Positions 7,250 through 46,504 are shown, counted from the stretch's first letter. The stretch is 64,000 bases of DNA from a candidate division TM6 bacterium GW2011_GWF2_32_72 (GCA_945882015.1 CAMCVM010000003.1:33342-97341), one strand, 5' to 3'. Notes: a model not told the origin generated them from the letters alone. Numbers and translations: made by a program.

Positions 7250-7987
7250 ATGTTTAAAATTCAAAAATTAATGTTAATTAGTTTTCTTGTTCTTTTTTCA
7301 GTTTTACAGGCAAAAGGTTTACGTGAAATTGCTCACTTGCCTCATGCTCAAGACCTTATTACAGAAGTTTTTAAAGAGCGTGGGTTAGATCCAAAAGATT
7401 TTGAATTTACATTTTATAATAAAAAAGGTAGTTGGTGTTACGTCTTAGGGAAAAATACCTTTGGATGTGATTTAATATTTTTGGAAAGATTAAATCAATT
7501 AGCTAAAGAAATTAAAGAAGAGTCTTCCATAAAGGGTAGGTTAATAAATTATGTAACTGGAAGAGATAAAAAATTTAATGAAAGTGTATTGCTTTTAGAA
7601 GGTTTTTTAGGTCATGAGATACAGCATCATTTTGATAGAGACGATTTGACAAGGGCTATCGTTTTATTTAATGGTTCACATGAATTGAAAAGAGAGATTT
7701 TTTTAGCGCTTGAAAAAAAAGCTGATTTATTCTCTTCAAACAATCCAGAAGTATTGAGAGCTTTAGCTTCTTATTTTGAAAAATTTTATCAAGAGTATGT
7801 TGTAACAATAAAATATATTGAAAGAATAAAAGCTCAAGGTTTTAGTATTCAAGAACCAGAAGAAGATAAGGATCATCCACATCCTTTAGAAAGAGCTTCT
7901 TATTTACGTGAAAAAGCAGATCAACTTAAAGCAGCACGAAGATTAGAATGGGGCAAAGAAGAAGATTATTTGATGCTTTCAAATTAA
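7250..7987 (+). CDS. secreted HExxH-motif protein, tandem paralog 1 of 5 (family not recognised)
   Basis: 245 aa with a signal-like N-terminus. Motifs: conserved LPHAQ..I..VF..RG..PKDFEF, then GHEIQHHFDRDD (HExxH) and KKADLFSSNNPEVLRALA. Confidence 0.8.
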   Translation: MFKIQKLMLISFLVLFSVLQAKGLREIAHLPHAQDLITEVFKERGLDPKDFEFTFYNKKGSWCYVLGKNTFGCDLIFLERLNQLAKEIKEESSIKGRLINYVTGRDKKFNESVLLLEGFLGHEIQHHFDRDDLTRAIVLFNGSHELKREIFLALEKKADLFSSNNPEVLRALASYFEKFYQEYVVTIKYIERIKAQGFSIQEPEEDKDHPHPLERASYLREKADQLKAARRLEWGKEEDYLMLSN

Positions 7988-8018
7988 ACTAAGTATTTTA
8001 AATGTTGGGGTTATAACT

Positions 8019-8708
8019 ATGGTTACTGTTTTTAATCGTTTTCTTTTAATTATTTTGGTATCGTTTTCAGGTTTGTTTGCAAAAGGTTTACGTGAAATTG
8101 CTCACTTGCCGCATGCGCAAGCTCTTATTACAAAAGTATTTAAAGAGCGTGGGTTAGATCCAAAAGATTTTGAATTTACATTTTATAATAAAAAAGGTGA
8201 CAATTGGTTATATTATCCAGGAATAAATGGTTTTTCTTTTGATTTATGGGACCTTGAAAAAGTTAACGATACGATGAATTATCCAGACTCTTTGTATCAA
8301 TTAATAAATTGTGACCGGTTTGGGCTTAAAAGCAGAAGAGAGCATCTATTATCTACTCAAGGATTTATAGGCCATGAATTGCAACATGCATGTGATCGTG
8401 CAGCAATAATCGATCTCTATTCTAGTGGGAAAAATTCAGATGAACTTACAGAAGAACTAAAAAAATTAGAAGCAAGAGCAGATCTTTTTTGTTCATCTGA
8501 TCCTGAAGTATTAAGAGCTTTAGCCAGATCTTTTAAGTATGCTTATGAACAAGTTAGATTACTTACTTTTTCAGGAAATCATGAAGCATGTACAATGTAT
8601 CTAAAAAAAATTGATCCAATACATCCTACATTCATTCAAAGATATCATTATTTATGTGCAGCAGCAGCTCAACTTGAGCAAGAAGGCTGTGGTTCTGCTC
8701 AACGATAA
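8019..8708 (+). CDS. secreted HExxH-motif protein, tandem paralog 2 of 5
   Basis: 229 aa. Residues ~21-60 are almost identical to paralog 1. HExxH is intact (GHELQHACDR), followed by ARADLFCSSDPEVLRALA. Confidence 0.8.
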   Translation: MVTVFNRFLLIILVSFSGLFAKGLREIAHLPHAQALITKVFKERGLDPKDFEFTFYNKKGDNWLYYPGINGFSFDLWDLEKVNDTMNYPDSLYQLINCDRFGLKSRREHLLSTQGFIGHELQHACDRAAIIDLYSSGKNSDELTEELKKLEARADLFCSSDPEVLRALARSFKYAYEQVRLLTFSGNHEACTMYLKKIDPIHPTFIQRYHYLCAAAAQLEQEGCGSAQR

Positions 8709-34678: not shown

Positions 34679-35056
34679 CGCCCTACGCGGGCGTTGCGGC
34701 AAAGCGGGGTTACTGCCAACCCCCTTTGCAATCCGGGCACCAGGGATAAATCCCTTGGAACCCTTTGCAAATTCTAATTCCCTCCGGTTCGCGCTCGCCT
34801 TTGCTACGCACGGCTGCACGTCTGAAGATAATTTGCGCTAAAGTACTTAACTTGATTAGAAAAGATGTCATCATGAGCGCAGCGTGGTGATCCAAGATTA
34901 TAGTTTATTAATGATAGCTCTTTATCAGCTTAGCTGAGCGGAAGTCCCGCAGGATCTGCAGTGAATCTAAGCGTGGGGTTTTAAGGGGTACCCCCTAATG
35001 TGTTGAGTCCAGAGGGGTGCACAAACATCCCTTTGGTGCAACGCCCGCAGAGGGCG
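34679..35056 (+). repeat. GC-rich hairpin-dense repeat element, copy A (MITE/REP-like or structured RNA)
   Basis: The ends are palindromic GC hairpins forming ~19-nt terminal inverted repeats (CGCCCTACGCGGGCGTTGC ... GCAACGCCCGCAGAGGGCG). Its reverse complement matches 46152-46504. GC content is far above the surrounding sequence. Confidence 0.85.
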
Positions 35057-35199: not shown

Positions 35200-37989
35200 T
35201 TATTGTAAAGCGACAACCCCTTTATTGCCGCCTGCAAAAATGGCACCTGTTGCTCCAATATTGCTGATCCAATAAAAGCGATCTTGTGTTTCTAAAGCAT
35301 TGTCAGCTTCAAACCCTGGTTCGGTATTGATATTCCAATCAGCAGTTCCCACGCGATAGGGTAAGCAATAGATATTATTCTGACGTCCATCTGAACTTGC
35401 AGGAATACCAATAAAAAATCTACGTGCTCCATCAGACCAGAAATATTTGGTTGGTACCACATCTGTTATGGTTGATCCATCAGTGCAAAATTGTGCATTG
35501 GGCATATCAGCAAGGGTGACAATATCAGAACTATTAATTTGACGCCATGAAGAGCGAGTATAAGTTTGTAACCCGAGCGCATCATCTGCCCAATGGCTTG
35601 CCCATACGGTTGATTCATAACGATTGTGAGTCGGTCCAGTTAAAAAATCATAAACATTTTCATCAGTTGCAGGGTTAGTCACTTGTGTCCAGGTTGCTTC
35701 TGTCTGAGTAGTGTCAGCATTGACTGCTGCAGCAGAACGATAGAGTCCATCATTGGTTGCAAGTAACAGTTTATCCGTTGAATTGTCAGCAGCGGACGGC
35801 ATAGGGAATATATCATAGAATAAAGTAGCAGTGCTCAAATCAGAAGCGGTTCCTAATCCAGTTCCAGATGATGCAATTAAAACAGTATCGCGAATTAAGT
35901 CTGTAATGTCTTCAGCGATTTCAATTCTATAAACTCTGTCAACAATGGTAGTATTGTTTCTGTCTAAATCACGGGTTAAAACATAGATCTGATTTTTAGT
36001 ACTTTTAATCTGTTTAACTTCACCAGAAATTGCAGTAATTTTTTGCCAAGAATAGGTTGTGGTATCAAATGGTACTGCGTTTAAATCCGCATAATTGGCT
36101 GAGTCAAATCCAGCTCCATTCGCAGTCAAGGCCCAGGCATACAATCCATTTTTGGTTCCAGCTAAAAAATAACCATTAGTCCCACCGCCTGCTCCTTTTG
36201 AATAACCAAGTGCAGTTACCGGTGCAGTTTCATTGGTAATTTGCGTAACCAGATAGGCGGTTGCTGCAGTAAAGTCAGAAGTTTCAGATTGGACTCCAAG
36301 AAATGCATTAGTTGCTGAAGTGCTTGTTTTAACAAAGACAACTTTTCCAGCCGCTCCACCAAAATAGGCATAACGTCTTGCTGCAGTGCTGGTGTCTCCA
36401 AAATTCACCGTTGATTGATTTAAATCATAAAAAGAAAAGCATCCGCTAGAAAGTAAGCTATTCAGTTGAGCAACTAATGAAGTTGTACCAGCTCCAGTTG
36501 TAGTCCACTCTGTCTTTTTAATCACGGTGCCACTTATTGTTACACCCCAGATATCACCGGTTGTTGCGTCAACTGCTATTTTTTTTGTTGAACCATCGGT
36601 TGCAGAATTTCCCAAACTAAACGGTGCAGCTTTTGCCCAATCGGTCCAGCGAGCAATTTTACCCAAGTCATTAAAAACTGCTTGTGAAAAATAAACACCT
36701 GGGGCATTGGTTGCTCCAACGGTATCGCTTGAAATTGCGCAATAAACCGCATCACCGACAACGTGCATATCAGAAACATAAATGTCTGCGTCATTTGCAA
36801 CTATAGGTAATACTCCACCACCAACTAAGGCAGAAGCAGTAGTTTTTGTGGCAAGATGTTCTGCAGCAGAGGCTTGGACATTAAAATGGCTGACCGTATC
36901 AAAGGTATTTGCGCGTGCCAACGTTCCATCGATATCGGTACCATTTCCCGAAACTAAGGGAACTGCATAGACTTCATTGCGAGTATTTGCGTCAGCTGAA
37001 CCACTTCCATTAACAATTAAATAATAAAAACCAGTTGAAGTTTTCATAACTGCCAATTTGCGTAATGCAACAACATCTTGTCGCCCTTTAAAACCAACAA
37101 TTCGTGTATTGTCATTCATTGACATTGCCTGATTTGCACACTGATTTAATTTGGTCAGCGTATTATTGTCAGGGTCAACTTTAAAGATTGCAACACCAAA
37201 AGCTCTGTCATTTTCATCAACGTTTTCACCGGTCATTTGTGCTGAAACATAGAGCCGTTTTAAATCGTCATTGTAAATCATATCAAAAAAAGGGCCCGGG
37301 ACAGAATTTGCTGTAATACCAAAAATAGCGCTTGCTTCCGTTGCATCAACATTAACGGCTTTTGGAGTGTTAGTGGTTCCATTGCTTGCGTCATAATACG
37401 TAAAGGTTGGAGTGGTTGCGCGATTTATGCGTACTAATGCAAGTCCATCATGTGCATCTTCGCCAAAATTATTATCGACTTGTCCGTTATCTTTAACCGC
37501 TACAATAACATGTGTTGGCGTAGCAACAAGACCAAGGATTTCTCCTGTTGTGTCTCCATTTTCATCCTTAATCGCCGCACTTGCTGCATAACTAGTACCT
37601 GCATAATCAATTACTTTAAAGATAGTTGAGCTGACCGTTGCATCATCTTCTGCAGTAAATACCAAATATGGTTGTGTTGGTAATGTTGCACTCTGTGAAA
37701 GGGACAGGTTACCAATATATTTACCCGTTACTGCTGCATTGCTGCCAATTGCAGCAAATGTCGGTTCTTGATTAAACCAATCATGGGTTACTTTTGAAAG
37801 AGCATAACTACCAGCGCCATTGGTTAAACCAACAAACCAGGTTTGTGATGGCCGATGGAAAGCGCTTGAAACTAAAGCGGTGGTAAAGGTTGTATTTGCG
37901 GTGGTTGAGTTGCCGTTTGCAATCACGACCGGATTGGTTTTTTGTATGGAACTGACAAAACATAACAGTAAAAATTTATTAAACTTCAT
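35200..37989 (-). CDS. large secreted Thr/Ala/Gly/Asn-rich surface protein, paralog of 41272-44094 (beta-propeller-like, family not recognised)
   Basis: 929 aa with a signal-like N-terminus and an AAGGA RBS. It shares long blocks with the 940-aa paralog (VYAVPLV.G.GTD.DGT, ARW..WAKAAP, GLYAWA, WQ.IT.I.G..K.IKS, LLATNDGLYRS, W.DG.RRF.I, YRVG.A.WNI). Confidence 0.8.
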   Translation of the reverse strand: MKFNKFLLLCFVSSIQKTNPVVIANGNSTTANTTFTTALVSSAFHRPSQTWFVGLTNGAGSYALSKVTHDWFNQEPTFAAIGSNAAVTGKYIGNLSLSQSATLPTQPYLVFTAEDDATVSSTIFKVIDYAGTSYAASAAIKDENGDTTGEILGLVATPTHVIVAVKDNGQVDNNFGEDAHDGLALVRINRATTPTFTYYDASNGTTNTPKAVNVDATEASAIFGITANSVPGPFFDMIYNDDLKRLYVSAQMTGENVDENDRAFGVAIFKVDPDNNTLTKLNQCANQAMSMNDNTRIVGFKGRQDVVALRKLAVMKTSTGFYYLIVNGSGSADANTRNEVYAVPLVSGNGTDIDGTLARANTFDTVSHFNVQASAAEHLATKTTASALVGGGVLPIVANDADIYVSDMHVVGDAVYCAISSDTVGATNAPGVYFSQAVFNDLGKIARWTDWAKAAPFSLGNSATDGSTKKIAVDATTGDIWGVTISGTVIKKTEWTTTGAGTTSLVAQLNSLLSSGCFSFYDLNQSTVNFGDTSTAARRYAYFGGAAGKVVFVKTSTSATNAFLGVQSETSDFTAATAYLVTQITNETAPVTALGYSKGAGGGTNGYFLAGTKNGLYAWALTANGAGFDSANYADLNAVPFDTTTYSWQKITAISGEVKQIKSTKNQIYVLTRDLDRNNTTIVDRVYRIEIAEDITDLIRDTVLIASSGTGLGTASDLSTATLFYDIFPMPSAADNSTDKLLLATNDGLYRSAAAVNADTTQTEATWTQVTNPATDENVYDFLTGPTHNRYESTVWASHWADDALGLQTYTRSSWRQINSSDIVTLADMPNAQFCTDGSTITDVVPTKYFWSDGARRFFIGIPASSDGRQNNIYCLPYRVGTADWNINTEPGFEADNALETQDRFYWISNIGATGAIFAGGNKGVVALQ

Positions 37990-38001
37990 AATTTATATCC
38001 T

Positions 38002-38048
38002 TTTTTAAGATAGTAACTATGATAGTCCGACGTTTATAATGTTGCAAG
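38002..38048 (-). promoter_or_regulatory. sigma70-like promoter of the 929-aa gene; copy 1 of a 47-bp direct repeat
   Basis: The minus strand reads TTGCAA(38047-38042)-17 nt-TATCAT(38024-38019), about 30 nt upstream of ATG 37989. It matches 38767-38813 at 46 of 47 positions. Confidence 0.6.
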
Positions 38049-38064
38049 GTTATGCAAAAGAGAA

Positions 38065-38451
38065 TCAATTTTTATTTTTTTGTAATACTTCAATAAGCTC
38101 ACTAAATGCTTTCTTGAATGATGGGAGTAAGATGATCAATTTACTGATTGCGTTATCCATATAAGTATGAGATGTCATATTACGCATATCTAAAAAATCA
38201 AACCATAATTGCGGTTCAATATTAAATTTTTCAGCAGATTTCCTAAAAACTTCTCTTGGGCTTTTTGTTTCAATTCCTTCATGAAGTAAGGCTCTTTTGA
38301 GGGCTTTCCAACTTAATTCATAGCAATATTCAAATGCTTTTATAACGGCCGTTTCTTCTGCTTCATTCTGCATTTTTGAGAATTGTAGTAATTTTTTTTC
38401 TGCTTTAATCAGTTGTTCAATATTAACTTTTTCATAATTTTCTTTATTCAT
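38065..38451 (-). CDS. hepT: HEPN-domain toxin, nucleotidyltransferase substrate-binding (HI0074/HepT) family
   Basis: 128 aa and helical, with the Rx4-6H HEPN motif in DMRNMTSHTY. It overlaps the upstream NTase gene by 8 nt. Confidence 0.8.
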   Translation of the reverse strand: MNKENYEKVNIEQLIKAEKKLLQFSKMQNEAEETAVIKAFEYCYELSWKALKRALLHEGIETKSPREVFRKSAEKFNIEPQLWFDFLDMRNMTSHTYMDNAISKLIILLPSFKKAFSELIEVLQKNKN

Positions 38452-38752
38452 TTTCTATTCCTAGATTTTTTTTATTAAGCAGTACTAGATCTTTTTCAAT
38501 ACTGGCAACGAATTTCGGATCACAACGTTCTTGTATTACAACGTCAACCGTAAATGGTAAATAAGATTCTTCAAAAGCATCGTTAATATAAAACGATTCT
38601 AAATTGGTGACTGGCTCTTTAATGAATAAATCTAAATCAGAAAATTTACGGCATTTACCGGTTACCCGGGATCCAAATGCGTAAAAGGTAAAGGGAAACT
38701 GTTTAATAATTTCCCAAACTATTTTTTTATCTTTTTCTTCCATATAAATCAT
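38444..38752 (-). CDS. mntA: minimal nucleotidyltransferase antitoxin (MNT/MntA, HI0073 family)
   Basis: 102 aa. The pol-beta NTase motif is AFGSRVTGKCRKFSDLDLF (GS-x9-12-DxD). It is paired with a HEPN gene. Confidence 0.8.
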   Translation of the reverse strand: MIYMEEKDKKIVWEIIKQFPFTFYAFGSRVTGKCRKFSDLDLFIKEPVTNLESFYINDAFEESYLPFTVDVVIQERCDPKFVASIEKDLVLLNKKNLGIENE

Positions 38753-38766
38753 AGAGGCTTACTTTC

Positions 38767-38813
38767 TTTTTAAGATAGTAACTATGATAGTCAGACGTTT
38801 ATAATGTTGCAAG
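38767..38813 (-). promoter_or_regulatory. copy 2 of the 47-bp repeat; likely promoter of the mntA-hepT operon
   Basis: It carries the same TTGCAA(38812-38807)-17 nt-TATCAT(38789-38784) arrangement, about 30 nt upstream of the mntA start. Confidence 0.55.
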
Positions 38814-38943
38814 TATACTGAAAAAAGAGAAGCTTAATTTTAAAAAAATAAGCTTAAAATCTAATTATTCTTGTTACTGAGTTATCTATTTTGTTATAAT
38901 CAGAAGCGTATCAAGGTAAATCAGAATCAAAAAGGAGGTTTTT

Positions 38944-39804
38944 ATGAAAAATATATCTAATAATTTGTATTTTTATTTACTCTTATTTATTTCAACAATA
39001 AGCAAGGCTGATGGTCCTTCTAAGGCTTTAGAGCTTATGCAAGCTATAGTAGATAATAATTATCCCGATTACGTTATTCCAATCGATCAAGCAATAATAC
39101 CTGATTTGCCATATCAACTTAAAATGGTTCAACAGAATTTACTTGATAATAATCCTGAAAAAGCACATCATAATCTCCGTTTTTTATTACGTGATCCAAA
39201 CAAAATTCCAGGTTTTATAAAATGTGCTAATTTTTATCAAAAAGTAACAGATTATGCAAGCGGAGGAAGATTGACAGGTGTAAAGATTTTTGATGAAAGA
39301 ATTGAACAATTTTTCGTAAAGCTTTTTGAGGCGATTGTCACTTATGGGAATCAGCAAGAATTTTTATTGGTAGCAGATGATTTATTTCATGGACATGTAA
39401 TTTTATTGCATGATAAAGTAACTAACTTTTCTGATATTATAATTGTATTTCATGCTAAAGAATTTCCTGCTGATTTGCCTGAAGCGGGAGGATTTAAAAG
39501 TAGAGCTGCTTCTCCTGTTAATTTTAATATGAAAGATGACACAGCATTTAATAAAAGAAATTTTATTTATTCATTGCGTTCTCATGCATTAATTAATTTG
39601 CAAAAAAATCCTTTAAGTCCAGACTATAAAAGCTATAAAGAGCTCATTACTGAATATGATCCATATTCAGACCTTAGAGTTAATACGGTAAGAGAGCATT
39701 ATTTTGGGCAACCATTATTTGATATTAACTATTTTCCTAATTTACATGGATTTGCAAAGAATGTTCCTGACCCACAAAGATGTCCCGTTTTATTTGCTTA
39801 TTAA
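38944..39804 (+). CDS. hypothetical secreted protein
   Basis: 286 aa with a strong AAGGAGG RBS and signal-like N-terminus YFYLLLFISTISKA. No family was recognised. Confidence 0.65.
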   Translation: MKNISNNLYFYLLLFISTISKADGPSKALELMQAIVDNNYPDYVIPIDQAIIPDLPYQLKMVQQNLLDNNPEKAHHNLRFLLRDPNKIPGFIKCANFYQKVTDYASGGRLTGVKIFDERIEQFFVKLFEAIVTYGNQQEFLLVADDLFHGHVILLHDKVTNFSDIIIVFHAKEFPADLPEAGGFKSRAASPVNFNMKDDTAFNKRNFIYSLRSHALINLQKNPLSPDYKSYKELITEYDPYSDLRVNTVREHYFGQPLFDINYFPNLHGFAKNVPDPQRCPVLFAY

Positions 39805-39830
39805 AAATAAGATCACTCAGGATGATATAC

Positions 39831-41081
39831 TTAGAAATCAGACGTAATTGAAAATCCGACCGATCCGGTAACAGTGTGGTTTTCAAATGCTCTTCGTGCT
39901 CTGACAACATGATTGTAACCAATACCAAACTTTGGGTGAATTCTACGTTCTTGCGAGTTTGCAAAATCAAATTCTGCGCCAACATGTACCACATGCATTG
40001 ACCAATCTTTGAGCATGCTGTCTTGGTTAATCACAGAACCTGGATAAAGTGCATTGTTTTTTGCAACCAGGCTGTCATTACCTTTGTGACTATAGGTGTA
40101 GCCGGTATATAATACAGCAGCACCATATTCTATTTTAAAGTGTCCGCCAACTTCATATAAATTACCCATTGTTTTACTGACGTGTGTTTTTGCAAGTTTG
40201 ATAAAACCATTTTGGCCCAGTGCAGATTGAATGCGTTGTAATGAACTGCGTTTAAACAAAAATGTTTCCTGTAAATGGAACCCAAATGAATAATATGAAG
40301 CAAACCCAAATGCCATATCAAAGCCCAGAAAGACTCCTTTATGTTTGTCATAACCAGGAGCAACAGAAAACGCATAATCTTGATCTTTTGCTGCAGCGGT
40401 GCCAAGTAATGCACCAACCTTAAGTGTCGCATCAAGATAATCTAAGTTATCAAGCGTGTCGGTGCTACGGGTCCATCCAGCAAAGACAGAAACATCACCA
40501 ATCCCTTTGATGCTGTGTCCTTGTCTGCTTAAATTGCTGTCAGCTAAAATAGTATCAAACAAGGCAAAAAATTGGTTCCATTCCGCATCGCGGTCAACTT
40601 CTGCAGTCAAATCAACAAAGGTTGGAGTTTTGATCTCAATTTTATAAAAAGGAATGGTTGAGCCAATAAAAAATTCATCAGTCAGATTCAGCCCAACTGA
40701 AATGGCACCACCTGAATAACAACATTTGCCGGTAAAAGCTAACGTTGCATAATTTTGATCTTCTGTAGTTGGAGTATGACGCCACAACGTATCAAGAACA
40801 TCTTGGCTTATTGCTGATAGGTTTTGATTTTCAACATTTTTACCAATTTGATGCATTTTGTGATTGCCATAAATGCCTAAAACATTCACGCTTTTTCCAT
40901 CACCATCTTTACCTTTGGTGGTGTTGCCATGTCCTCCGAAAGCATCGATGGTTAATAAGCCTTTGCGCTCATAACGTGTTCCAAAGGGATACTGGTGTGC
41001 CGTATAAAAATGTGAATGGGCATAAAAGGTGTGTGGTAACAGAATCAATAAACTGAGTAATTTGAGTTTGTCAGATAACAT
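39831..41081 (-). CDS. outer-membrane beta-barrel protein (porin-like), paralog of 44116-45381
   Basis: About 416 aa from ATG 41081 (AAGGAA RBS). It has a signal peptide and alternating amphipathic beta-strand pattern. The C-terminus ends SVGFSITSDF, with the terminal aromatic Phe typical of OMPs. Confidence 0.7.
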   Translation of the reverse strand: MLSDKLKLLSLLILLPHTFYAHSHFYTAHQYPFGTRYERKGLLTIDAFGGHGNTTKGKDGDGKSVNVLGIYGNHKMHQIGKNVENQNLSAISQDVLDTLWRHTPTTEDQNYATLAFTGKCCYSGGAISVGLNLTDEFFIGSTIPFYKIEIKTPTFVDLTAEVDRDAEWNQFFALFDTILADSNLSRQGHSIKGIGDVSVFAGWTRSTDTLDNLDYLDATLKVGALLGTAAAKDQDYAFSVAPGYDKHKGVFLGFDMAFGFASYYSFGFHLQETFLFKRSSLQRIQSALGQNGFIKLAKTHVSKTMGNLYEVGGHFKIEYGAAVLYTGYTYSHKGNDSLVAKNNALYPGSVINQDSMLKDWSMHVVHVGAEFDFANSQERRIHPKFGIGYNHVVRARRAFENHTVTGSVGFSITSDF

Positions 41082-41220
41082 CACAATTTCCTTTTGCTTG
41101 AAGAGTAGTTGTTTCTAAGCGTTACCTAGTCTGACAAAAAAGTAAAGAGTCAAGATGTTTATAAAGAATAAACAAACATCTTAATCCGCCGAAGGTAAAA
41201 ACGAAGGAGGGTAGGGTAAT

Positions 41221-41250
41221 AAAAAAGGCGAGCCGGAGCCCGCCTTTTTT
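41221..41250. terminator. rho-independent terminator after the 940-aa gene (bidirectional)
   Basis: AAAAAA-GGCGAGC-cgga-GCCCGCC-TTTTTT, 22 nt beyond the stop at 41272. Confidence 0.75.
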
Positions 41251-41271
41251 ATTTGTATATCGTAAGTTGTT

Positions 41272-44094
41272 TTACAGTAGAACAATGCCAGTGCTTGTAC
41301 CAACTGCAATATGTCCATCAGGTAGTTGATTGATGCAGTACAGGGTTTTATTTGCTAATGCTGAAGCTGATACTTTCTCAACAGGGTCAGTAATATTCCA
41401 ATTTGCTGCACCTACTCTATATGGCCAAATGTAAAGCCCGGTTGTACCTGTTGAATCTTCAGGAGTTGCAATCATAAAGCGACGTACACCGTCAGTCCAG
41501 TAATCAAGAATTCTCTTAGCTCTTAAGAAGGTTGTTGTGCTATCAGAAAGATAATGACTAAATGGTAATGATGTTACCACATTATTACCTGTTGCGCCAT
41601 TATCATCATCTGAACAAATAAATTGATCTAAATCACGGAAATTATATGTTCTGGTATTACTACTATTATCTTTAAGTGAAACTGCTTGGAGTGTTGTAGT
41701 TAAGTTAGTTTTGCCTTTTGAGAAAATACCAGTAAACATTTGCCCTCTTGTATCCTTATTTCCGACTTTTTCACCAATCGGTGTCCATAGAGCAGTTGCT
41801 TGGGAAGTTGCACCAGCTATACCAAGAACGTCGTCAGTTTTTGATTGGTAAAGGCCATTATTAGTCGCTAAAATTACTTGTGAACCTGTGCCAGCTGTTA
41901 AACCATTGATGATTTCAAAATCAAGGATTTGAGTAGCAAGTGTTAAATCACTGCTGGTTGCTGAAACACCAGATTGAGCAACCACTACAGTACCGGTAAT
42001 TAATGTACCAACAGTAGTAGCATTAGTTGCTAGCATATACAGTGTATCAACTATCGTAGAGTCTGTTCCAATATCACGAGCAAGTATAAAGGTTCCAGCA
42101 TCAGATGATTTAATCTTCTTAATATGACCAGTAATACTGGTAATAGCTTGCCAAGTATTTGCATTAGCAAAGAAGCCATCATTTAAATTGGTAAGAAGTT
42201 CTGCTACCCCTGAGTTTAATTCAGCACCTTCTCCATCTGCTGTATTTGCATACGCATAAAGGCCCTCTGTTGTTCCAGCTAAGAAAAAGAAAGCTTTCGC
42301 GGTTGTAGTATGAAGAGTTCCACCAAGTGCTGTTACATAACCCGCACCAGAAGGTAAGGTTGTGGCTAAGAAATTTATAGCAGCAGAATAATCAGTAATA
42401 GCTGTTTCATCAATCGAATATGTTCCAGCTGGATCATCTTCAGCAGATGTTCTTGTTTGGACAGTAAAGACTACTTTTTCTTTACCACCAAACACTGCCA
42501 TACGCGAAATAACCTGAGCACCCCAATTAACGGTTGTTCTGTCAAATACAGCCATTGCGGTACAGCCATCAGTTGCTAATTGTGCGTTAACAGCTCCAGC
42601 AAGTTCTGTAGCGCCTGTTTGATCTCCCCAGGTAGTAACTTTTACAGTAGAAAGAGCATTACCTACTATTGCCCATACTTTACCACTACGCGGATCAACT
42701 TTAAAATCATGTACGTCGCCATCAGCTGTTCCTGTTCCGATTGCGTTTGGAGCAGCTTTTGCCCAGCGTGACCAACGAATTATTTTACCGTTTTCATTAA
42801 ATTCTGGAGTTGAATAAAAAATACCAGCTTCATCGCCATTAGCATGACCTAGAACGCTTGATGAGACGTATACTGTATCACCAATTACTTGCATTCTTGT
42901 TAGTGTATCAGCTGTGAAGGGCAGTTTAACAGTTCCAACAATAGCATGAGCATCAGTATTAAGTGGAATATCTGTCGCACCGCTTGCTTGAATGTTAAAA
43001 GTAGGGGTATTTAATTCACTTTTAGCAAAAGTACCATCAGCATCCGTTCCAAGTCCTTTAACTAGTGGTAAAGCATAAACTTGATCTCTTAAATCAGCAC
43101 CAGCAGCTCCTGAGCCACCATTAATAATTAAGTATGCGTGTCCGGTTGAAGTATGCATGACTCCTAAATTATATGCTTTTGCAACTCTTGCCGCAGGAAC
43201 AGCAGATGCAGCAGCAAAAACAATTCTTGTTGCAACATCTCCAGTATCAAAAGCAGCTGTATTAGCAACAGTTGCTAATACGGTTAAGTTACCAGCAGCA
43301 TTAGTTGTTTTTGCAACTAATGTACTAATAGCAATATCTCCCGCTGTGCCGCCTGAAGTTACTTGTCCCCCAATATACAGTCGAGATAAAGTTTCATCCC
43401 AATGAAGAACAGGGTCTTGATTTGCTGTTAAAACTGCAGTTGCAGTTTTTCCATGAGATGTTCCAAGAGGTGCTGCTGTAGCTATTATTGCAGCAGAGTT
43501 AGAAGCTCCAGGAATAGTTAAAGCAGTTTGATCAGTAATTGCTATGACGTTAATACCACGGCCTGCAGTAGCCCAGTTAGTGCTAGCTGTAACAGCTGTT
43601 GCTGCAAAAATAGCAGAACCATTAGCTGCTAATGCTCTTATACCGTTAGCTGCAATATCGGCTCCAGCAATATCTTTTAAAGTAGCGTTTGTTCTTTCAT
43701 CTACTGTGCCGTCTGCACTTTGGATACATACTCTTGTAGTATTAGTTGTGTCTTCTACAAAAGCAAGACGAATAGCATTAGTTGTTGGGTGGTATGATGG
43801 TGCCATTAAACGAATACTAACGTTTGTTGCAAGTCCAGATGCAACACCAGTTTGAGTTGGCGTTGTACCATCATTAGTATGAGCAGAAATTTTGGTAATA
43901 TTATTTAGATCTGCTGCACCAGCTGCAGCTGTTCCAATATAAAGATCACCAGTTGTTCTATCAAGTACCATCGTATTTGTACCAGTGGTAATTGCAGTAT
44001 CAAGGGTTACCGAATCAGGGGCGCATTGTATAAACGGCATAGCTAGGAAACTGCTTAAAAGCAGTCCTAACTTAAACGTTCTGAATGTTTTCAT
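41272..44094 (-). CDS. large secreted Thr/Ala/Gly-rich surface protein, paralog of 35200-37989
   Basis: 940 aa with a signal peptide and an AAGGAA RBS. It starts 21 nt after the upstream OMP gene stop, so it is probably co-transcribed. Conserved blocks are listed under the 929-aa paralog. Confidence 0.8.
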   Translation of the reverse strand: MKTFRTFKLGLLLSSFLAMPFIQCAPDSVTLDTAITTGTNTMVLDRTTGDLYIGTAAAGAADLNNITKISAHTNDGTTPTQTGVASGLATNVSIRLMAPSYHPTTNAIRLAFVEDTTNTTRVCIQSADGTVDERTNATLKDIAGADIAANGIRALAANGSAIFAATAVTASTNWATAGRGINVIAITDQTALTIPGASNSAAIIATAAPLGTSHGKTATAVLTANQDPVLHWDETLSRLYIGGQVTSGGTAGDIAISTLVAKTTNAAGNLTVLATVANTAAFDTGDVATRIVFAAASAVPAARVAKAYNLGVMHTSTGHAYLIINGGSGAAGADLRDQVYALPLVKGLGTDADGTFAKSELNTPTFNIQASGATDIPLNTDAHAIVGTVKLPFTADTLTRMQVIGDTVYVSSSVLGHANGDEAGIFYSTPEFNENGKIIRWSRWAKAAPNAIGTGTADGDVHDFKVDPRSGKVWAIVGNALSTVKVTTWGDQTGATELAGAVNAQLATDGCTAMAVFDRTTVNWGAQVISRMAVFGGKEKVVFTVQTRTSAEDDPAGTYSIDETAITDYSAAINFLATTLPSGAGYVTALGGTLHTTTAKAFFFLAGTTEGLYAYANTADGEGAELNSGVAELLTNLNDGFFANANTWQAITSITGHIKKIKSSDAGTFILARDIGTDSTIVDTLYMLATNATTVGTLITGTVVVAQSGVSATSSDLTLATQILDFEIINGLTAGTGSQVILATNNGLYQSKTDDVLGIAGATSQATALWTPIGEKVGNKDTRGQMFTGIFSKGKTNLTTTLQAVSLKDNSSNTRTYNFRDLDQFICSDDDNGATGNNVVTSLPFSHYLSDSTTTFLRAKRILDYWTDGVRRFMIATPEDSTGTTGLYIWPYRVGAANWNITDPVEKVSASALANKTLYCINQLPDGHIAVGTSTGIVLL

Positions 44095-44115
44095 AATTAT
44101 ATTCCTTTTTTTAAA

Positions 44116-45381
44116 TTAGAATTTCCAGGTGATATTTAAGCCAGCATTACCACCAATTGTGTTGGTGTTGAAAATTCTTTTACCAGCAACCGGGTGATTG
44201 TAGAAAATACCAAGTTTTGGGTTCCAGCATTGGCCTTCTTGTGCAAAATCATATTCTGCTGCAACACTAACAGTATGCATTCTCCATTTTTTCAGCATTT
44301 CATCAGAATTTACAATTAAGTCTGTAAATACATCAGTATCTTCAACAGCAAGTGTTGTGTCTTCTTGTGCTGTGTAGTTATAGCCAACCATTAAAGAAAA
44401 ACCACCAAAAATATGGTCAGCTTTTACATAGGTTCCGATATCCCACAAGTTGCCCAAGTCTTCCCGTGCTTTTCCGCTTGCTAATTTGATAAAACCATTT
44501 TGGTCAGCATGAGTTTTCATTCTTGCATGCACATCGTGCTTTAAGAAGAACTGTCCACCAACATGTGCACCAAAGGTAAACCAGTCATATAATCCTAAAG
44601 CCATATCAAATGACAATGGAATTCCAACGTGTCCGTTGTATCCACCAGGGATTGAAAATGCGTGAGTTGATTTGCGTTCACGTGCTGTTGGGATAGAAAG
44701 ACCAGATTTAATGGTTACATCAAGGAAATCTAAGTAATCAATTGTGTCGTTGTTGTAAGTCCAACCCCCATAAACTACTATATCACCAATATTAGTTTCT
44801 TTAGTTGCAGCCTTTGATACACCATGACGAGTCAAAATGTTATCAAAGCGAGCTAAAAATTGAGTCCATTCAGCAGAGTTAATGTTAGGTAATCCTGTTG
44901 AAGGTGAAATATCGGTAAATGCAACATTTGAAACTTCAAGTCTATGAACTGGAAGTACTACTTGTGCAAAAAATCCATTACAGAAATTTTGAGTTAACGT
45001 TACATCAACACCAAGATATTTGAATTTTCCACTAAATTGTACTTTACCAAAATTTCCGTTATTTGGTTGAGCCATCAAGTTGATTAAGATTGCATCATCA
45101 ATATTCAGAGGGTCAAGGTTTTGAATGCCTTCACCTAAACGATGCATATTGTGAGCGCCATAGATGTTTAAAAGATCAGTTTTGTTTTTGTCACCATTAC
45201 GACCATTCTTTGTGCTTCCTCCCATTACAGAAACGTCAACTGACGAAAGACAGTTGCGGTCAAAGCGTGGCTCACTGTGATAGTCAGCTGCTCTGTAATG
45301 AAAACGGTAACCCAACGCTGAGGCTGGTACCATCAGGAGGGCAAGAACAAAGAAGGCATGAGAAACGAACGTCTTCTTCAT
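44116..45381 (-). CDS. outer-membrane beta-barrel protein (porin-like), paralog of 39831-41081
   Basis: About 421 aa from ATG 45381 (AAGGAA RBS). Signal is MKKTFVSHAFFVLALLMVPASALG. It ends NAGLNITWKF. Blocks shared with its paralog include NIYG.H.MH..G, F.GK, W.QF.A.FD.IL, GD..V..GWT, DYLD.T.K.G, QNGFIKLA and K.W.MH.V.V.AE.DFA. Confidence 0.7.
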   Translation of the reverse strand: MKKTFVSHAFFVLALLMVPASALGYRFHYRAADYHSEPRFDRNCLSSVDVSVMGGSTKNGRNGDKNKTDLLNIYGAHNMHRLGEGIQNLDPLNIDDAILINLMAQPNNGNFGKVQFSGKFKYLGVDVTLTQNFCNGFFAQVVLPVHRLEVSNVAFTDISPSTGLPNINSAEWTQFLARFDNILTRHGVSKAATKETNIGDIVVYGGWTYNNDTIDYLDFLDVTIKSGLSIPTARERKSTHAFSIPGGYNGHVGIPLSFDMALGLYDWFTFGAHVGGQFFLKHDVHARMKTHADQNGFIKLASGKAREDLGNLWDIGTYVKADHIFGGFSLMVGYNYTAQEDTTLAVEDTDVFTDLIVNSDEMLKKWRMHTVSVAAEYDFAQEGQCWNPKLGIFYNHPVAGKRIFNTNTIGGNAGLNITWKF

Positions 45382-45580: not shown

Positions 45581-46108
45581 ATGAGTAATCATTTAGATCA
45601 AGATGGATTTCCTGAATTAGATTCAGAAATGGCACAATCAGAGCATAATAATAAAGAACAATCAGACGCGTGTCAGGTTGAACTTACAGCAATTAAAGAA
45701 CAGTTGGTACGTTTAGGAGCTGATTTTCAGAACTATAAAAAGCGTATTGAACGGGACAAGTCTGAATGGTATCAAACTGCTCAAACTCAGTTATTGTTAG
45801 ACCTGTTACCAGTTATTGATGATTTTGACAGAGCTATGCAAGAATCAAAAAAGGGTGAAGTTTCTTCAGAAATAACACAATGGCTTGCGGGCTTTGCGTT
45901 AATTTATAAAGCATTAACTGAATTTTTAAAGCAACGTTCTGTCAAGGAAATTGACCAAGTTACCACTTTTGACCCAGAGTTGCATGAAGCGTTGATGCAA
46001 GTTGATTCACCAGAACATAAGACTGATGAGATTGTGCAAGTTTTACAACGTGGTTTTATGTTTAATGGTAAAGTTTTAAGACCAGCCAAAGTGAGTGTTG
46101 CTAAGTAA
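45581..46108 (+). CDS. grpE: nucleotide exchange factor GrpE
   Basis: 175 aa. LRLGADFQNYKKRIERDK and the C-terminal beta-domain pattern HEALMQV...VLQRGFMFNGKVLRPAKV match GrpE. No dnaK follows. Confidence 0.9.
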   Translation: MSNHLDQDGFPELDSEMAQSEHNNKEQSDACQVELTAIKEQLVRLGADFQNYKKRIERDKSEWYQTAQTQLLLDLLPVIDDFDRAMQESKKGEVSSEITQWLAGFALIYKALTEFLKQRSVKEIDQVTTFDPELHEALMQVDSPEHKTDEIVQVLQRGFMFNGKVLRPAKVSVAK

Positions 46109-46151: not shown

Positions 46152-46504
46152 CGCCCTCTGCGGGCGTTGCACCAAAGGGATGTTTGTGCACCCCTCTGGA
46201 CTCAGCACATTAGGGGGTACCCCTTAAAACCCCTGACGCTCTGATTCACTTCTGGCCCTTTATTACATTGCACACAATGTAATACGGTTGCATCCGATCA
46301 ACAGAGCTAATACAGAGCTATCATTATTAATTAAAGAGATACTTTAGCGCAAATTATCTGAGACGTGCAGCCGTGCGCAGCAAAGGCGAGCGCGAACCGA
46401 AGGGAATTATAATTTGCAAAGGGTTCTAAGGGATTTATCCCTGGCACCTGGATTGTAAAGGTGGTTGGTGATAACCGCCTTTACCGCAACGCCTGCGTAA
46501 GGCG
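46152..46504 (-). repeat. GC-rich hairpin-dense repeat element, copy B (inverted relative to copy A)
   Basis: 46152-46249 is the reverse complement of 34961-35056 with 2-3 differences. 46342-46504 is the reverse complement of 34679-34844 at roughly 88% identity by eye. The centre has diverged with indels. Confidence 0.85.

Follow-up and report, generated by a model that had tools for sequence, protein, structure and literature searches.

An ancient outer-membrane barrel and tandem beta-propeller gene pair of Babeliales, duplicated and once split in a single genome

The locus at positions 35200-45381 of a 64,000-nt stretch of Babeliales DNA (from contig CAMCVM010000003.1; hereafter the window, with positions counted from its first letter) raises the question of whether an outer-membrane barrel and a large exported protein, encoded there by two gene pairs, form a module, and if so how old that module is and what it does. 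Dependentiae, the phylum concerned, live widely as obligate parasites of protists; next to nothing is known of their envelope, and lipopolysaccharide (LPS) synthesis is absent in most of them. The searchable literature holds no characterized outer-membrane protein of Dependentiae. The genome that carries the window (the source genome) is that of a Babeliales bacterium of 819 kb and is 92% complete. A reading of the window from its letters alone (the original prediction) had proposed two copies of a barrel-plus-secreted-protein module, the second of them broken by an insertion.

All four open reading frames (ORFs) of the locus are intact and lie on the minus strand, and both their predicted coordinates and the ITWKF and ITSDF ends predicted for the barrels were borne out. 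OMPb (44116..45381) is a type-A1 outer-membrane barrel of 421 aa that carries a Sec signal peptide and a C-terminal beta-signal, ending in NITWKF. It is followed after 21 nt by big2 (41272..44094), read as a type-A1 exported tandem beta-propeller protein of 940 aa; both assignments come from the ORF call and an AlphaFold2 (AF2) model. OMPa (39831..41081), of 416 aa and ending in ITSDF, is a type-A2 barrel and a paralog of OMPb, and big1 (35200..37989) is read as a type-A2 tandem-propeller protein of 929 aa, each from the ORF call, the identity to its paralog and its place in the trees; the gap between these two genes is 1841 nt. The two pairs are clear paralogs, as had been predicted, with 34% identity between big1 and big2 over 751 columns (E 2e-85) and 34% identity between OMPa and OMPb over 412 columns (E 1e-86).

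Distribution and history of the pairs

Across a sample of 201 Dependentiae genomes, all from the order Babeliales, the barrel family was present in every genome (E<=1e-20), usually in several copies, and the propeller family in 191. Among the matches listed, a barrel lies within 3 kb of 68 of the 76 best full-length propeller matches, and for 67 of these 76 it lies directly upstream on the same strand, with a typical gap of 25-60 nt. Two gene orders were distinguished. Type A consists of a barrel gene then a propeller gene, divergent from grpE; on its other side are ssb, a CDP-alcohol phosphatidyltransferase gene and mnmA, and the arrangement is kept even in distant genomes. The grpE synteny was seen in loci L001-L005 and L052, and in the window the divergent neighbor that marks the type-A locus across Babeliales is grpE at 45581..46108 on the plus strand (Pfam GrpE, 2.5e-43). 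Type B, which comprises the lower-scoring propeller matches, has the propeller gene first: the barrel lies directly downstream in 17 of 20 fetched loci from 11 families, with a gap of ~10-40 nt or a short overlap. The source genome has its third pair in this order on contig 2 (L006:4385-8605), where big3 (983 aa) and OMP3 (417 aa) are 15 nt apart.

The numbers of the two genes at a locus can differ. One barrel is found with two or three tandem propeller genes in G099, G032 and G039, and two barrels stand ahead of one propeller in G081; one barrel can serve several tandem propeller genes. The functional module of the original prediction gains support on each count: barrel and propeller-like folds are predicted for its two members, the two families co-occur and adjoin phylum-wide in two gene orders, and neither of them matches a known adhesin or S-layer family. 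When the barrel profile was searched against 1.84 billion representative sequences, 1383 relatives were found at E<=0.001, of which the best 150 were listed. The homologs come from metagenome-assembled genomes only, and the few informative names among them are Candidatus Babeliales, with one labelled Proteobacteria and others just "bacterium".

The history of the pair was followed in one maximum-likelihood tree for each family, with SH-aLRT support. The barrel tree and the propeller tree show the same split into A and B clades (SH-aLRT 99-100). Since both trees separate A from B, the A and B modules arose by co-duplication of the whole pair, an event older than the divergence of the sampled families. 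Within family f1 the same A1/A2 split appears in the two trees. Specifically, OMPb and big2 group with the first-pair genes of genomes G063 and G030, OMPa groups with the second-pair barrels of the same two genomes (SH-aLRT 100), and big1 groups with their second-pair propellers (SH-aLRT 99-100). The two pairs of the window are the product of a second duplication of the pair within family f1.

Barrel plus propeller is securely an ancient, co-duplicating and near-universal module of Babeliales, which the source genome holds in three copies, one of them split. Few unannotated gene sets of Dependentiae are as well conserved. New family models are justified and would name thousands of "hypothetical proteins". 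The searchable Dependentiae literature contains no description of a barrel-propeller pair; for Babela, Pagnier et al. go no further than "three porins" and secreted, propeller-like proteins that are Cys-rich.

Predicted folds of the two proteins

The AF2 model of OMPb, made from a 48-sequence alignment, had a pLDDT of 90.2 and a pTM of 0.85 and contained 12 long strands, as counted from the DSSP secondary-structure string. The model has short periplasmic turns of 3-7 aa and long extracellular loops. Two of these loops, L1 (~51 aa) and L2 (~35 aa), bear helices (residues 94-104 and 170-185), and ~20 mature residues (25-44) stand ahead of strand 1. In the family alignment L1 and L2 contain many near-invariant residues, which is unusual for a porin and suggests that these loops either reach into the lumen or make up an interface that is conserved. 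The C-terminal residue is aromatic (F, Y or W) in 45 of the 48 family members, the usual signal for the beta-barrel assembly machinery (BAM), and the source genome encodes two Omp85 proteins, both on contigs other than that of the locus.

A Foldseek search with the OMPb model ranked FapF (5o65/5o67) first, with E ~1e-12 and a target TM of 0.65-0.75. It was followed by the COG4313 channel 4rl8, FadL/TodX and the autotransporter barrels EstA, EspP and NalP; OmpC and OprP were low-TM matches only. The best matches are thus autotransporter barrels and 12-stranded channels for polypeptides or hydrophobic substrates. The model thus leads us to read the protein as a BAM-inserted, 12-stranded barrel that is closest in fold to FapF and the COG4313 channels. 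Sequence searches gave no comparable lead. Pfam, NCBIfam and PADLOC scans of the four locus proteins returned no meaningful match, in agreement with the original prediction, which could name no family for them; a Pfam scan of the 48 members of the barrel alignment was equally empty, and the barrel family profile found no match among PDB sequences. A classical 16-18-stranded trimeric porin was considered and rejected, as there was no Porin_1, Porin_4 or OMP_b-brl Pfam match and the barrel is read as 12-stranded. The "porin-like barrel" first proposed for these genes is accordingly kept as a FapF/COG4313-like barrel (pLDDT 90) and given up as a classical porin.

The AF2 model of big2 had a pLDDT of 82.9 and a pTM of 0.89 and was all-beta, with ~60 strands. 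Foldseek matched it to the tandem propellers Elp2, DDB1 and GH74 and to single WD40 propellers, with a probability of 1.0 against the Elp2, DDB1 and EED propellers; the GH74 match was weak (query TM 0.24). The large protein is modeled, then, as an all-beta tandem propeller. Members of the family have a signal peptide and no conserved lipobox, their pI is 4.6-4.95 (4.95 for big2), and most of them contain 0-9 Cys residues. The propeller protein is Sec-exported, acidic, mostly cysteine-poor and ~930-1150 aa long. Its predicted richness in Thr, Ala, Gly and Asn was confirmed, the four residues together making up 39% of big1 and 43.5% of big2.

The large proteins also contain a family-specific string, LATN(D/N)GLY, and strings of this sort had been described as BNR/propeller-like. 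The propeller half of that description agrees with the model and its Foldseek matches (AF2 pLDDT 83). The BNR half was rejected because a regular-expression search for the Asp-box (S-x-D-x-G-x-T-W) found none in big1 or big2, and Pfam BNR matched neither protein. The propeller family profile produced only noise against PDB sequences, and alignment of the N-terminal with the C-terminal half of the family by hhalign detected no internal duplication. No ligand-binding or catalytic motif was recognized in the propeller, and Pfam and NCBIfam scans detected neither a peptidoglycan-binding domain nor a known adhesin or S-layer family.

Interruption of the second pair

The second pair had been predicted to be ~1.8 kb apart, and its 1841-nt interval indeed holds an opposite-strand gene and a putative MntA/HepT-type pair. 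The opposite-strand gene (38944..39804, plus strand), a near-orphan of 286 aa with a signal-like N-terminus, is convergent with OMPa. It has no Pfam or PADLOC match, and a search of the 200 other Dependentiae genomes found no homolog; only 5 homologs were found among 5.8 billion proteins. The mntA-like gene (38444..38752, minus strand) encodes an antitoxin-type nucleotidyltransferase (NTase) of 102 aa (Pfam Polbeta 1.1e-08, NTP_transf_2 1.6e-07) and overlaps by 8 nt the gene for a HepT-like/NTase substrate-binding protein of 128 aa (38065..38451, minus strand; Pfam NTase_sub_bind 3.1e-23). The HepT-like Pfam model itself scored this protein at 0.0033 and 17.6 bits, below its cut-off of 23.5.

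Direct repeats of 62 bp flank mntA-hepT, the copies being 89% identical over 62 nt. Copy 2 (38767..38828, minus strand) carries a promoter-like TTGCAA-17-TATCAT upstream of mntA, and the site is repeated in copy 1 (38002..38063, minus strand), ~30 nt upstream of big1. Because mntA-hepT lies between the repeats, big1 keeps a promoter copy of its own. The inserted DNA has 28-30% G+C as against ~40% in the flanks.

The order of events is apparent from genome G063 (GCA_027487215.1), in which grpE is followed by barrel-propeller-barrel-propeller, a 192-aa gene and ssb. The window is collinear with G063, where the barrel and propeller of the second pair are 24 nt apart. This short gap, together with the grouping of OMPa and big1 with second pairs in the trees, indicates that the tandem duplication of the pair came first and the 1.84-kb insertion later; duplication followed by interruption, as originally proposed, is therefore upheld. 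The 1.84-kb insertion that separates OMPa from big1, made up of the near-orphan and mntA-hepT with its duplicated promoter-like site, is recent. In G030 (L030:5129-6354, 7624-8324) the pairs are 1.2 kb apart, with a second barrel-propeller gap of 0.7 kb.

Inverted copies of a GC-rich, hairpin-rich repeat at 34708-35056 and 46152-46476 of the window bracket the whole barrel/propeller/grpE segment; their arms are 82-116 nt long and 90-99% complementary. An inversion of the whole segment between these repeats was ruled out by the collinearity of the window with G063. A near strain, L052, whose OMPb is 97% identical, is collinear with the window up to the end of its contig. The near strains L050 and L051 differ from the window: in both, the orphan gene stands directly after a copy of the flanking repeat, and neither big1 nor the putative toxin-antitoxin cassette intervenes. 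The second pair consequently seems to be in flux among near strains. L050:1-5570 and L051:1-1321 are independent metagenome contigs, their copy of the repeat is mosaic and GC-rich, and beyond it in L050 comes grpE. We considered a chimeric assembly through the inverted repeats as the source of the grpE-repeat-orphan junction in L050 and rejected it, as the orientation does not fit and L051 has the same repeat-orphan adjacency.

For the first pair, the short gap and the terminator of the original prediction were both found. The intrinsic terminator of the OMPb-big2 operon (41218..41253, minus strand) lies 3' of big2 and consists of the hairpin GGCGGGC-UCCG-GCUCGCC and a U-run, with a dG of -23.8 kcal/mol and a z of -6.75. 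It was identified by direct reading of the sequence and RNA folding; a simple terminator scan missed it. An Rfam scan of the window and of the loci of three relatives returned two tRNAs only, both far from the locus.

Possible roles of the pair and known systems

Between the window and the close strain L052, dN/dS was 0.070 for grpE, 0.049 for OMPb, 0.066 for OMPa and 0.221 for big2, so that big2 evolves faster than its partner OMPb. Residues ~90-300 of big2 are hypervariable, with a dN of 0.26-0.48 and a dS raised to 1.3-1.7, a pattern that fits allele exchange. Some type-A orthologs of ~1140 aa carry, roughly where big2 is hypervariable, a ~170-aa stretch of CPxGxxFxPxxxxC repeats together with a proline-rich linker. 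Such Cys-rich repeats belong to extracytoplasmic, typically extracellular proteins, and are typical of eukaryotic extracellular ones. In P0035 about ten tandem repeats of this kind occupy residues ~262-440 within the first propeller (P0027, P0032, P0033 and P0036 have them also), and they match CBM_14, cEGF and TNFR-like models weakly. A separate observation concerns OMPb, whose dS between the same two strains (0.29) is much below that of grpE (0.92) and big2 (0.74); codon constraint from high expression and recent strain-to-strain gene exchange are possible explanations.

We tentatively favor the reading that the propeller is a surface-exposed partner, anchored or exported by its cognate barrel and possessing a variable outward face. 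The propeller is taken as the exposed partner because of the faster rate of big2, the hypervariable residues ~90-300, the Cys-repeat inserts, the low pI, the lack of a lipobox and the small number of cysteines. Each propeller would work physically with its own cognate barrel, which would anchor it at the cell surface and might also translocate it. By its conserved central and C-terminal regions the propeller would dock on the barrel, and its hypervariable N-terminal part would face outward, contacting the protist host or its contents. The pair probably builds part of the host-facing cell surface. We infer physical interaction, surface exposure and an export or anchoring role, and the same applies to the "surface layer, adhesin or export pair" of the original prediction.

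Several observations weigh against this reading. A folded propeller could not pass a plugged barrel of 12 strands, which is too narrow; export by that path would need an unfolded substrate, and unfolded transit is hard to square with the Cys-rich propeller variants (18-30 Cys). The source genome has two secretins, and a type II system could therefore export the propeller instead. The Foldseek matches are generic for barrels and for propellers, with a TM to tandem propellers of ~0.2. Near-universal retention in genomes of ~0.8-2.4 Mb is more to be expected of a housekeeping function in the envelope than of an adhesin alone. Finally, the coupling of barrel and propeller is not absolute: no propeller at all was found in 10 of the 201 genomes, type-A barrels stand without an adjoining propeller in family f2 (G001, G002, G181) and in G098 (f4), and in 16 of 23 loci of a third barrel subfamily the gene immediately upstream of the barrel encodes an APC amino-acid permease.

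This third subfamily is present in 54 of 61 genomes. The source genome has two further barrel paralogs without propellers, one of which belongs to it; a 477-aa third-subfamily barrel is encoded on contig 8 (L007:3993-6686), ~70 nt downstream of an APC permease, and the other loci are L054-L076. In this arrangement a channel in the outer membrane may be coupled to an importer in the inner one. Together with the lone barrels, the permease-linked subfamily indicates that the barrel fold can work alone and that at least one barrel subfamily is probably a solute channel. The lone high-scoring type-A barrel loci are L077, L079 and L080 (f2) and L078 (G098), and in G001 the 4 kb past the lone barrel contain six opposite-strand ORFs, all of them small (157-199 aa).

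The linkage of the third subfamily to the APC permease also underlies an explanation by nutrient capture, in which the barrel is a solute channel and the propeller a surface ligand-binding lid or collector, with a SusC/SusD-like function performed by other folds. Persistence of the f2 type-A barrels without a propeller implies a separate function for the barrel, Dependentiae of this kind rely on the import of metabolites (PMC4378268, PMC6561590), no TolC or classical porin family was found for these proteins, and propellers of the GH74 type are among the Foldseek matches. We nevertheless consider nutrient capture unlikely. The GH74 resemblance is weak, as noted above, and comes with no recognizable ligand-binding or catalytic motif, there is no lipobox to keep a lid at the membrane, and hypervariability with Cys-rich, eukaryote-like inserts would be unusual for a nutrient binder.

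A propeller that remained in the periplasm could link the barrel to peptidoglycan or to the inner membrane, in a TolB-Pal-like or tethering role. Near-universal retention and fixed grpE synteny in very small genomes would suit such a scaffold, as would dark periplasmic material in C. destructans (PMC6561590), and a propeller beside an outer-membrane protein recalls tolB-pal. Moreover, the phylum is reported to be without the four known outer-membrane tethers: in the ten Dependentiae genomes surveyed by Witwinowski et al. there was no Lpp, Pal, OmpA or OmpM (bioRxiv 10.1101/2021.05.31.446380). However, the source genome does have OmpA_C-like and TolQ/ExbB-like proteins, the Pfam and NCBIfam scans found no peptidoglycan-binding domain, and the short periplasmic turns and the ~20 residues before strand 1 leave little for the propeller to dock on. 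The hypervariable region, the tandem expansions and the Cys-rich inserts would also be unexpected of a scaffold, which we regard as quite improbable. The OmpA_C-like domain protein (open frame of 228 aa) and the TolQ/ExbB-like protein are found at C2:108246-108533 and C3:29245-29550.

Co-transcription with no further tie, the barrel being a major outer-membrane channel and the propeller an independent secreted host-interaction protein exported, for example, by a type II system, is compatible with the two secretins, with the secreted propeller and WD40 proteins common in Dependentiae (PMC4378268), with the barrels that stand alone in some lineages and with a near strain's second barrel that seems to lack big1 downstream, but it is hard to credit, as it leaves unexplained two opposite gene orders, each kept across many families, trees that mirror each other through two rounds of duplication, and gaps of 10-60 nt that sometimes become overlaps.

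The surface-exposed pair thus remains the reading that we tentatively prefer. Its presence in every sampled genome, usually in several copies, makes the barrel a prime candidate for a major outer-membrane complex and host-contact surface. Cultured strains would offer as targets the two ancient cognate pairs, the hypervariable propeller face and the natural pair splits and partner losses. A bolder version, which we think doubtful, is a split autotransporter-like display: a FapF-like barrel would pass its cognate propeller in unfolded form through an LPS-poor outer membrane and then keep it at the cell surface, and the A and B modules would be the infectious cell's main host-contact coat and help to set the host range. 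If true, this would be a new route of outer-membrane secretion and display throughout the sampled phylum.

Known envelope systems resemble the pair in part. TolB-Pal is likewise a universally kept envelope pair in which a propeller gene lies beside the gene of an outer-membrane protein. Nevertheless, Pal is an OmpA-like lipoprotein and not a barrel, and TolB, which is unrelated in sequence, consists of one propeller only, with six blades and ~430 aa. In SusC/SusD and Slam (type XI) a dedicated barrel is encoded beside a surface partner and the pairs multiply by duplication, as here; the differences are that the propeller partner is not a lipoprotein and that no TonB-dependent receptor, SusD, DUF560 or TPR signature is present. 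Two-partner secretion differs in its 16-stranded TpsB of the Omp85 type with POTRA domains and in the TPS domain of TpsA, which have no counterpart here, neither protein having any Pfam match.

The likeness to type V secretion lies in a 12-stranded barrel with a large, acidic, beta-rich and mostly cysteine-poor "passenger", and the propeller-barrel and barrel-propeller gene orders mirror the domain orders of types Va and Ve, respectively. Unlike in the autotransporters, the passenger here is a propeller and not a beta-helix, and barrel and propeller are invariably encoded by separate ORFs that have a signal peptide apiece. Fusions of the two were absent from the matches listed, where the longest homolog has 1164 aa and the longest open frame 1182 aa. 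The separate ORFs and the missing signatures led us to reject the barrel as an autotransporter, TpsB, Slam or SusC.

The second-best structural match of the barrel, the COG4313/Pput2725 channel (PDB 4rl8; Pfam Phenol_MetA_deg), also has 12 strands and loop elements over or into the barrel. These channels are not paired with large exported proteins, however, and none of the 48 barrel members matched Phenol_MetA_deg, even at E<=5. The best match, FapF from the Pseudomonas fap amyloid operon (PDB 5o65, 5o67, 5o68), is 12-stranded like the Babeliales barrel. FapF has an N-terminal periplasmic coiled coil and a plug helix, whereas the Babeliales barrel is without both and has helices in L1 and L2; the partner of FapF is a small amyloid subunit as opposed to a tandem propeller of 930-1150 aa; and the neighbors here are grpE and the propeller gene, with no other fap genes. 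The barrel has no Pfam, NCBIfam or PDB sequence match, and membership of the FapF or COG4313 family was rejected for want of a sequence relation, coiled coil, plug helix or fap context. The likeness to FapF extends beyond the fold to the layout of the genes: in both cases a barrel gene lies beside one or more genes for exported beta-rich proteins that the barrel would serve, and one barrel can accompany several paralogous substrate genes.

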